A DNA stretch of 402 nucleotides from sequence record MW984358.1. One strand, 5' to 3'. The notes below the pieces were generated by a model that worked only from the letters and a program-made list of their open reading frames with translations, searched no databases and was not told the origin of the DNA. The translations under genes and the position numbers were made by a program. Source of the stretch: a phage. Each line of letters starts with the position of its first letter. Position 1 is the stretch's first letter. Below, piece by piece: positions 1 through 402 of the stretch.

Positions 1-23
1 TGGTACCTTTCTATTCTCACTCT
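1..23 (+). other. 3' end of pIII signal-peptide coding region (..V-P-F-Y-S-H-S); signal peptidase cleavage expected after codon 21-23
   Basis: tg|gta cct ttc tat tct cac tct matches the M13KE leader/cloning junction as I remember it. Confidence 0.85.
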
Positions 24-402
24 TGTATTTGGTGTGTGGGGGAGCCTTGCGGAGCCTTTTGGTGGAGGTTCGGCCGAAACTGTTGAAAGTTGTTTAGCAA
101 AATCCCATACAGAAAATTCATTTACTAACGTCTGGAAAGACGACAAAACTTTAGATCGTTACGCTAACTATGAGGGCTGTCTGTGGAATGCTACAGGCGT
201 TGTAGTTTGTACTGGTGACGAAACTCAGTGTTACGGTACATGGGTTCCTATTGGGCTTGCTATCCCTGAAAATGAGGGTGGTGGCTCTGAGGGTGGCGGT
301 TCTGAGGGTGGCGGTTCTGAGGGTGGCGGTACTAAACCTCCTGAGTACGGTGATACACCTATTCCGGGCTATACTTATATCAACCTTCTCGACGGAATCC
401 TC
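1..402 (+). CDS. gIII: Filamentous phage M13 gene III (minor coat/adsorption protein pIII) as an N-terminal peptide-display fusion; partial at both ends. Leader frame has codons at 3-5 ... 21-23; pIII frame has codons at 61-63 ... 400-402; the two are offset by +1 across the 37-nt insert.
   Basis: Frame with codons at 73,76,... translates without stops to AETVESCLAKSHTENSFTNVWKDDKTLDRYANYEGCLWNATGVVVCTGDETQCYGTWVPIGLAIPEN-(EGGGS)3EGGGT-KPPEYGDTPIPGYTYIN..., which I recognise as mature pIII N1, linker and N2. Upstream 3-23 encodes VPFYSHS, the end of the pIII signal peptide as found in M13KE. No in-frame ATG in the window, so the start lies upstream. Confidence 0.93.
2..7. other. KpnI/Acc65I site (GGTACC), the 5' library cloning site of M13KE-type vectors
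   Basis: GGTACC read directly at 2-7, in the expected position relative to the TCT CAC TCT leader end. Confidence 0.9.
24..60 (+). other. Displayed-peptide library insert, 37 nt (36 expected for a 12-mer NNK library); contains an apparent single-base insertion
   Basis: Lies between leader end TCT (21-23) and spacer GGT GGA GGT TCG (61-72). Leader-frame codons 24-47 (tgt att tgg tgt gtg ggg gag cct) all end in G/T; pIII-frame codons 46-60 (ctt gcg gag cct ttt) also all end in G/T; the two registers differ by one base. Confidence 0.85.
61..72 (+). other. Gly-Gly-Gly-Ser spacer (GGT GGA GGT TCG) joining displayed peptide to mature pIII
   Basis: Exact spacer sequence as I recall it for Ph.D.-type libraries, in frame with mature pIII. 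Confidence 0.85.
71..76. other. EagI site (CGGCCG), the 3' library cloning site
   Basis: CGGCCG read directly at 71-76, spanning the Ser-Ala-Glu codons as in M13KE. Confidence 0.9.
89..110 (-). other. Annealing site of the standard -28 gIII sequencing primer (recalled from memory)
   Basis: + strand GTTGTTTAGCAAAATCCCATAC at 89-110 is the reverse complement of the primer as I remember it. Confidence 0.55.
157..176 (-). other. Annealing site of the standard -96 gIII sequencing primer (recalled from memory)
   Basis: + strand CGTTACGCTAACTATGAGGG at 157-176 is the reverse complement of the primer as I remember it. Confidence 0.55.
274..330 (+). repeat. gIII: Glycine-rich linker G1 of pIII, encoded by near-perfect 15-bp tandem repeats (EGGGS x3 + EGGG)
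   Basis: Units gagggtggtggctct (274-288), gagggtggcggttct (289-303), gagggtggcggttct (304-318) and partial gagggtggcggt (319-330). Confidence 0.9.
331..402 (+). other. gIII: Start of pIII N2 domain (F-pilus-binding domain), truncated by the window edge; last ~6 codons diverge from the expected sequence
   Basis: Translation TKPPEYGDTPIPGYTYIN matches pIII N2; the following codons read L-L-D-G-I-L where I recall P-L-D-G-T-Y. Confidence 0.8.

Follow-up and report, generated by a model that had tools for sequence, protein, structure and literature searches.

Which base is surplus in the peptide insert of this phage sequence, and which peptide was it meant to encode? The window, by which we mean the whole stretch of 402 nt that was analysed (MW984358.1), begins at positions 1-23 (plus strand) with the leader end of gene III in its M13KE design (…V P F Y S H S). 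Its sequence is T GGTACC TTTCTATTCTCACTCT, translated VPFYSHS, and it includes the engineered KpnI/Acc65I site GGTACC at 2-7. The library oligo of the NEB cloning system has been given as 5'-…GGTACCTTTCTATTCTCACTCT…(NNK)n…GGTGGAGGTTCGGCCG-3' (bioRxiv 10.1101/2025.05.12.648809), and comparison with it identified both flanks of the insert as strings of the NEB Ph.D. oligo, with positions 2-23 representing the exact string …GGTACCTTTCTATTCTCACTCT directly 5' of the insert. Wild-type M13 differs from this leader end in the alignment (GTTGTTCC…CACTCC) and lacks the spacer. Downstream of the insert, the plus strand carries the GGGS spacer of the Ph.D. design (GGT GGA GGT TCG, GGTGGAGGTTCG) at 61-72, an EagI site (CGGCCG) at 71-76 that straddles the end of this spacer, and the mature pIII (AETVESCLAKSH…) at 73-402, which comprises N1, the EGGGS glycine linker and the start of N2.

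The mature pIII is in frame with position 61 and out of the leader frame. It matches Pfam PF05357 Phage_Coat_A (E-value = 4.7e-28), and its translation is identical to residues 1-104 of PDB 1g3p. At the nucleotide level, 70-395 shows 98.8% identity with M13, the sole internal difference from M13 (Rutgers isolate) being T at 103 in place of the wild-type C (AAA TCC CAT, Lys-Ser-His instead of Lys-Pro-His). The K-S-H residues are common to PDB 1g3p and the insert-less clone of the Ph.D.-12 library, which has been given as AETVESCLAKSH (PMC9697088), and T103 is a vector marker of M13KE/M13mp19 and no error. The glycine linker extends over about 274-330 and is an ordinary gene III feature. Near-perfect tandem copies of the 15-nt unit TCTGAGGGTGGCGGT occupy 279-330 and code for the (EGGGS)n linker between the N1 and N2 domains of pIII. 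Taken together, the flanks, the restriction sites and the pIII match lead to the conclusion that the window is an engineered sequence, namely a read of a 12-mer pIII display clone in an M13KE-type vector (NEB Ph.D.-12 design). It shares with NEB Ph.D.-12/M13KE clones the leader end, the KpnI and EagI sites, the GGGS spacer, the K-S-H pIII and the NNK codon pattern, but differs from them in having an insert of 37 nt rather than 36 and a pIII that is out of the signal-peptide frame. Scanning of viral, metagenome and genome collections for Ph.D.-type clones (leader end, 15-45 nt, GGGS/EagI) gave 0 matches in each of them.

The constant flanks stop at 23 and resume at 61, leaving a random peptide insert of 37 nt at 24-60 (plus strand), which corresponds to 12 NNK codons and one surplus base; there is thus no 36-nt insert in frame with both leader and pIII. 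The length is attributable to this single base and does not indicate another vector. Since the insert has 37 nt instead of 36, the leader frame reads it as CIWCVGEPCGAFWWRFGRNC and then meets a TGA stop at 84-86 (plus strand), so that pIII as written would be truncated after 20 insert-frame residues (VPFYSHSCIWCVGEPCGAFWWRFGRNC*). The pIII frame is free of stops over the entire window. Every reconstruction of the insert starts with Cys-Ile-Trp-Cys (24-35), a CxxC pair at the mature N-terminus. These two Cys make an even count, compatible with pIII display; the leader-frame reading as written adds a third one (48-50). A minus-strand ORF at 17-121 and a plus-strand TTG ORF at 23-97 were dismissed as frame by-products and not genes.

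Concerning the position of the surplus base, the earlier note had placed it in CCTT at 45-48 by means of the NNK rule, i.e. only G or T at the third codon position, and had reconstructed the 12-mer as CIWCVGE(P/L)AEPF. With the library made as (NNK)12, codons upstream of the surplus base must obey this rule when read from the leader, and codons downstream of it when read in the frame of pIII. The premise and the two-frame approach are sound, as the flanks match the NEB Ph.D. design and Ph.D.-12 is documented as an NNK library (PMC9697088). The sequence also bears out the observations on which CCTT was chosen. In the leader frame, the third base is G or T in all codons of 24-47 (tgt att tgg tgt gtg ggg gag cct), with the first break at TGC (48-50), and in the pIII frame the same holds for all codons of 46-60 (ctt gcg gag cct ttt), with the first backward break at AGC (43-45). 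The bracket, however, was found to be wider when each of the 37 insert bases was removed in turn and a deletion was accepted if all 12 codons ended in G or T. Deletions at 45, 46, 47, 48, 49 and 50 passed this exhaustive test, the insert being NNK throughout (12/12 codons) after removal of any one of them, and the other 31 positions gave 1-3 violations each. Thus, the C at 45-46 and the T at 47-48 stand as proposed, but G49 and C50 pass too. The narrower bracket arose because it was equated with the overlap of the two valid stretches; a surplus base within 48-51 (tgcg) is allowed too, because the last base, G51, still supplies the K. With the G/T rule followed in both frames, the surplus base is therefore to be sought in CCTTGC (45-50, plus strand), given the NNK design and a single insertion.

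Removal of 45 or 46 (C) yields the codons ctt gcg and the peptide CIWCVGELAEPF, and removal of 47 or 48 (T) yields cct gcg and CIWCVGEPAEPF. These are the two peptides of the earlier 12-mer and both are NNK-consistent, but two further peptides are equally so: removal of 49 (G) leads to cct tcg (…gag cct ttt) and CIWCVGEPSEPF, and removal of 50 (C) to cct tgg (…gag cct ttt) and CIWCVGEPWEPF, i.e. to P-S and P-W at residues 8-9. CIWCVGE(L-A / P-A / P-S / P-W)EPF is consequently the proper reconstruction, with four peptides and not two. Such ambiguity is typical of the rule. Simulated NNK 36-mers to which one random base was added had a median of 6 admissible positions, equal to the bracket size observed here (6), and a median of 5 distinct reconstructions. 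The NNK rule seldom yields a unique repair, and a bracket of about 6 bases with about 5 reconstructions is what it typically leaves.

How far the third positions themselves speak for an NNK library was evaluated by simulation. Only 0.17% of uniform random 37-mers had any NNK-consistent deletion, but 13.5% of the shuffles of this particular insert passed the NNK test by chance. G or T occupies 12/12 third positions vs 16-17/24 at positions 1 and 2 (Fisher p = 0.02-0.04), a periodicity that is only moderately significant because 78% of the insert is G+T. Support from the insert sequence is hence moderate; strong support is provided by the vector flanks and by the documented library design. Specifically, Ph.D.-12 was built by NNK mutagenesis and deep sequencing found always G or T at the third codon position (PMC9697088). 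The skewed composition and the share of passing shuffles are also what speaks for an insert that is not NNK-encoded (a trimer-phosphoramidite library, an NNN/NNS library or a designed sequence), for which the third-position argument would be void and the surplus base could lie anywhere. The usual trimer sets use the codons preferred by E. coli, such as ATC, TTC, TGC and GAA. In the present insert, the codons att, ttt, tgt, gag, ggg and cct are NNK forms, the many T-ending codons rule out NNS, and the contrast between the third and the other codon positions points in the same direction. As the flanks, additionally, agree exactly with the NEB system, in which libraries are built as (NNK)n, we regard a non-NNK insert as the most improbable of the explanations considered.

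A second way of escaping the bracket is an NNK library clone that has at least one non-NNK codon, with the surplus base outside 45-50, for example a G of the GGGGG run (38-42) or a T of the TTTT run (57-60). These two are the longest runs in the insert, and it is in homopolymer runs that base-calling and flow-based sequencing most often introduce insertion errors. The rule nevertheless rules out both runs as the site, since removal of a G forces AGC (one violation) and removal of a T forces TGC, GGA and GCC (three violations), against the G/T restriction of third positions in the deep-sequenced library (PMC9697088). Posterior weights were calculated under explicit error models, on the assumption that 0.1-3% of codons violate the NNK pattern. 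With run-length-squared weighting, the G-run solution received 0.3-8% of the posterior and the T-run solution essentially none; under the model in which the surplus base must copy a neighbour, the G-run solution received 0.1-8%. A surplus base outside CCTTGC is thus very improbable.

The same weights were used for ranking the four peptides within the bracket. Under a uniform random insertion model, the weights were 0.30-0.33 for L-A, 0.30-0.33 for P-A, 0.15-0.17 for P-S and 0.15-0.17 for P-W. The pair CIWCVGELAEPF and CIWCVGEPAEPF therefore holds 60-66% of the posterior if the insertion is uniform (e.g. an n+1 synthesis product or a spurious peak), and it holds 86-99.7% if the surplus base copies its neighbour (a split peak or a homopolymer over-call), a model that among the NNK-consistent sites admits CC and TT only. 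These two peptides are in our estimation the most probable ones and may serve as best guesses, although the NNK rule by itself does not favour them over the other two; P-S (CIWCVGEPSEPF) and P-W (CIWCVGEPWEPF) are possible candidates on the same logic. A full-text search of published papers found none of the candidate peptides.

The insert also contains two exact copies of GGAGCCTT on the plus strand, at 41-48 and 51-58 (8 nt each, 10 nt apart), as detected by repeat search. The bracket shares its first four bases (45-48) with the first copy and is directly followed by the second. Of the simulated NNK+1 inserts only 0.9% had a repeat of at least 8 nt, and of the shuffles 1.7%. Both copies are codon-aligned in 3/4 reconstructions, namely the P-containing ones, where they produce E-P-x-E-P. 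The repeat could be due to chance, to a selected E-P motif or to a T insertion templated by the quasi-repeat. Its use for choosing among the reconstructions was abandoned, because 36-mers of a random library are equally probable a priori and three of the four align the copies equally well. No inverted repeat suggesting gel compression was found within the insert.

Regarding the origin of the surplus base, an artefact of base-calling, of PCR or of the template would account for it, the simplest case being the doubling of a C or T. Gene III is present only once in M13KE, and a frameshift there should block the production of infectious phage. Variable-region frameshifts have indeed been reported to lead to no infectious virions, and in the naive library they were rare, with only 0.075% of reads frameshifted (PMC9697088). 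Because a frameshifted single-copy gene III should give no infectious phage, a technical origin is the likeliest one, and we consider it probable. The end of the window is instructive in this respect. Its last 17 bases (386-402, plus strand) are degraded: in the alignments with M13 they show the substitutions C386T and G>T and lack a C and a CTT, which marks the record as an unedited read with indel errors. In this tract, M13 GGCACTTATCCG is read as GGAATCCT, and the translation changes from NPLDGT to NLLDGI. The preceding stretch, however, counts against a technical origin: 76-385 has no base-call error, the vector marker T103 being its sole difference from M13, and there is no independent sign of poor base-calling near 45-50. 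On balance, the record is most probably an unedited read of an M13KE-based 12-mer NNK clone (NEB Ph.D.-12 or the same cloning system) with a technical surplus base in 45-50.

The same error-free stretch is what could be expected if the extra base were real in the phage DNA, as an n+1 oligo product or a replication error, and +1 shifting before the TGA at 84-86 made enough pIII. Frameshifted reads constitute 0.075% of the naive Ph.D.-12 library and have been attributed to oligo synthesis (PMC9697088), and display clones that are frame-disrupted but active through +1/-1 decoding have been documented (Atkins et al. review, PMC5009743). In the present insert, perfect +1 re-pairing (3/3 identical positions) is offered by GGG_G at 39-42 and UUU_U at 57-60, which is a property of the sequence only, and the pIII frame is open through the whole window. 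These would be the likeliest slip sites, the former with the product CIWCVG|SLAEPF-GGGS, i.e. CIWCVGSLAEPF, and the latter with CIWCVGEPCGAF|GGGS; slippage at CCU_U (45-48) would give CIWCVGEP|AEPF. It has to be stressed that the NNK rule locates an insertion at the DNA or read level only. For a real insertion that is rescued in translation, the peptide on display would be set by the ribosome slip site and not by the 45-50 bracket.

As regards features that may promote such a shift, a slow A-site codon does not follow the slippery sites, where GAG and UGG come next. The rare AGG (66-68) and the TGA (84-86) are found only beyond them, neither being adjacent to a re-pairing site. A Shine-Dalgarno-like GGAG is present at 51-54, 2 nt upstream of UUU, and gives GGAG-CC-UUU-U (51-60) a loose likeness to the prfB (RF2) +1 site, with its SD-like element shortly upstream of the slippery site. 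The prfB site, however, has a 3-nt spacer, CUU (Leu) in the P-site and a UGA stop in the A-site, as opposed to the 2-nt spacer, UUU (Phe) and UGG found here, and the present stretch is random-library and not evolved sequence. RNA folding of 24-120 (z = -2.0) gave no defined or convincing frameshift stimulator, and an Rfam scan of the window gave no match. Furthermore, the UUU_U product would have three Cys, and odd Cys counts are disfavoured on pIII; Cys is also under-represented in the library (PMC9697088).

Frame-disrupted clones decoded by ribosomal +1/-1 frameshifting were reportedly recovered from phage display by Carcamo et al. in 1998 (as cited in PMC6259656), and the present one resembles them in an insert that is out of the pIII frame and in the short slippery runs GGG_G and UUU_U. 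The documented cases, however, are so far known only from phagemid/helper systems. M13KE is a type 3 vector without helper wild-type pIII, in which a frameshift is strongly counter-selected, and rescue by the putative trans-frame product would have to sustain infectivity alone. A real insertion rescued by slippage is accordingly unlikely in our view. If true, the displayed peptide would be CIWCVGSLAEPF or CIWCVGEPCGAF and none of the NNK reconstructions, and the clone would represent a selected frame-disrupted binder of the kind said to have been first reported in 1998, now in a helper-free vector.

With a technical surplus base as the preferred explanation, the finding is most likely an ordinary laboratory artefact and biologically nothing new. 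Natural biology is unaffected, as the vector is engineered and the anomaly most likely technical, and the practical value is limited to the owner of the clone, for whom four 12-mers, and not two, fit the library design. Indel repair from known library length and composition is established in display-library pipelines (bioRxiv 10.1101/2025.05.12.648809). The approach of the earlier note is like the P3ANUT-type correction described there in using the known length and composition of the library to recognise and repair indels. It differs in that one read was treated by hand, through the K-third-position rule alone, without a second strand or quality scores.

Finally, some observations were made on how the read was generated. 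Two stretches of the window, 89-110 and 157-176, are exact matches to the two standard NEB sequencing primers, -28 gIII and -96 gIII, respectively. As both binding sites are inside the window, neither primer can be the source of the read, and either a different primer was used or sequencing ran in the forward direction. The window starts at the base that directly follows …TTATTCGCAATTCCTTTAG, perhaps because a PCR amplicon had been trimmed of its primer.
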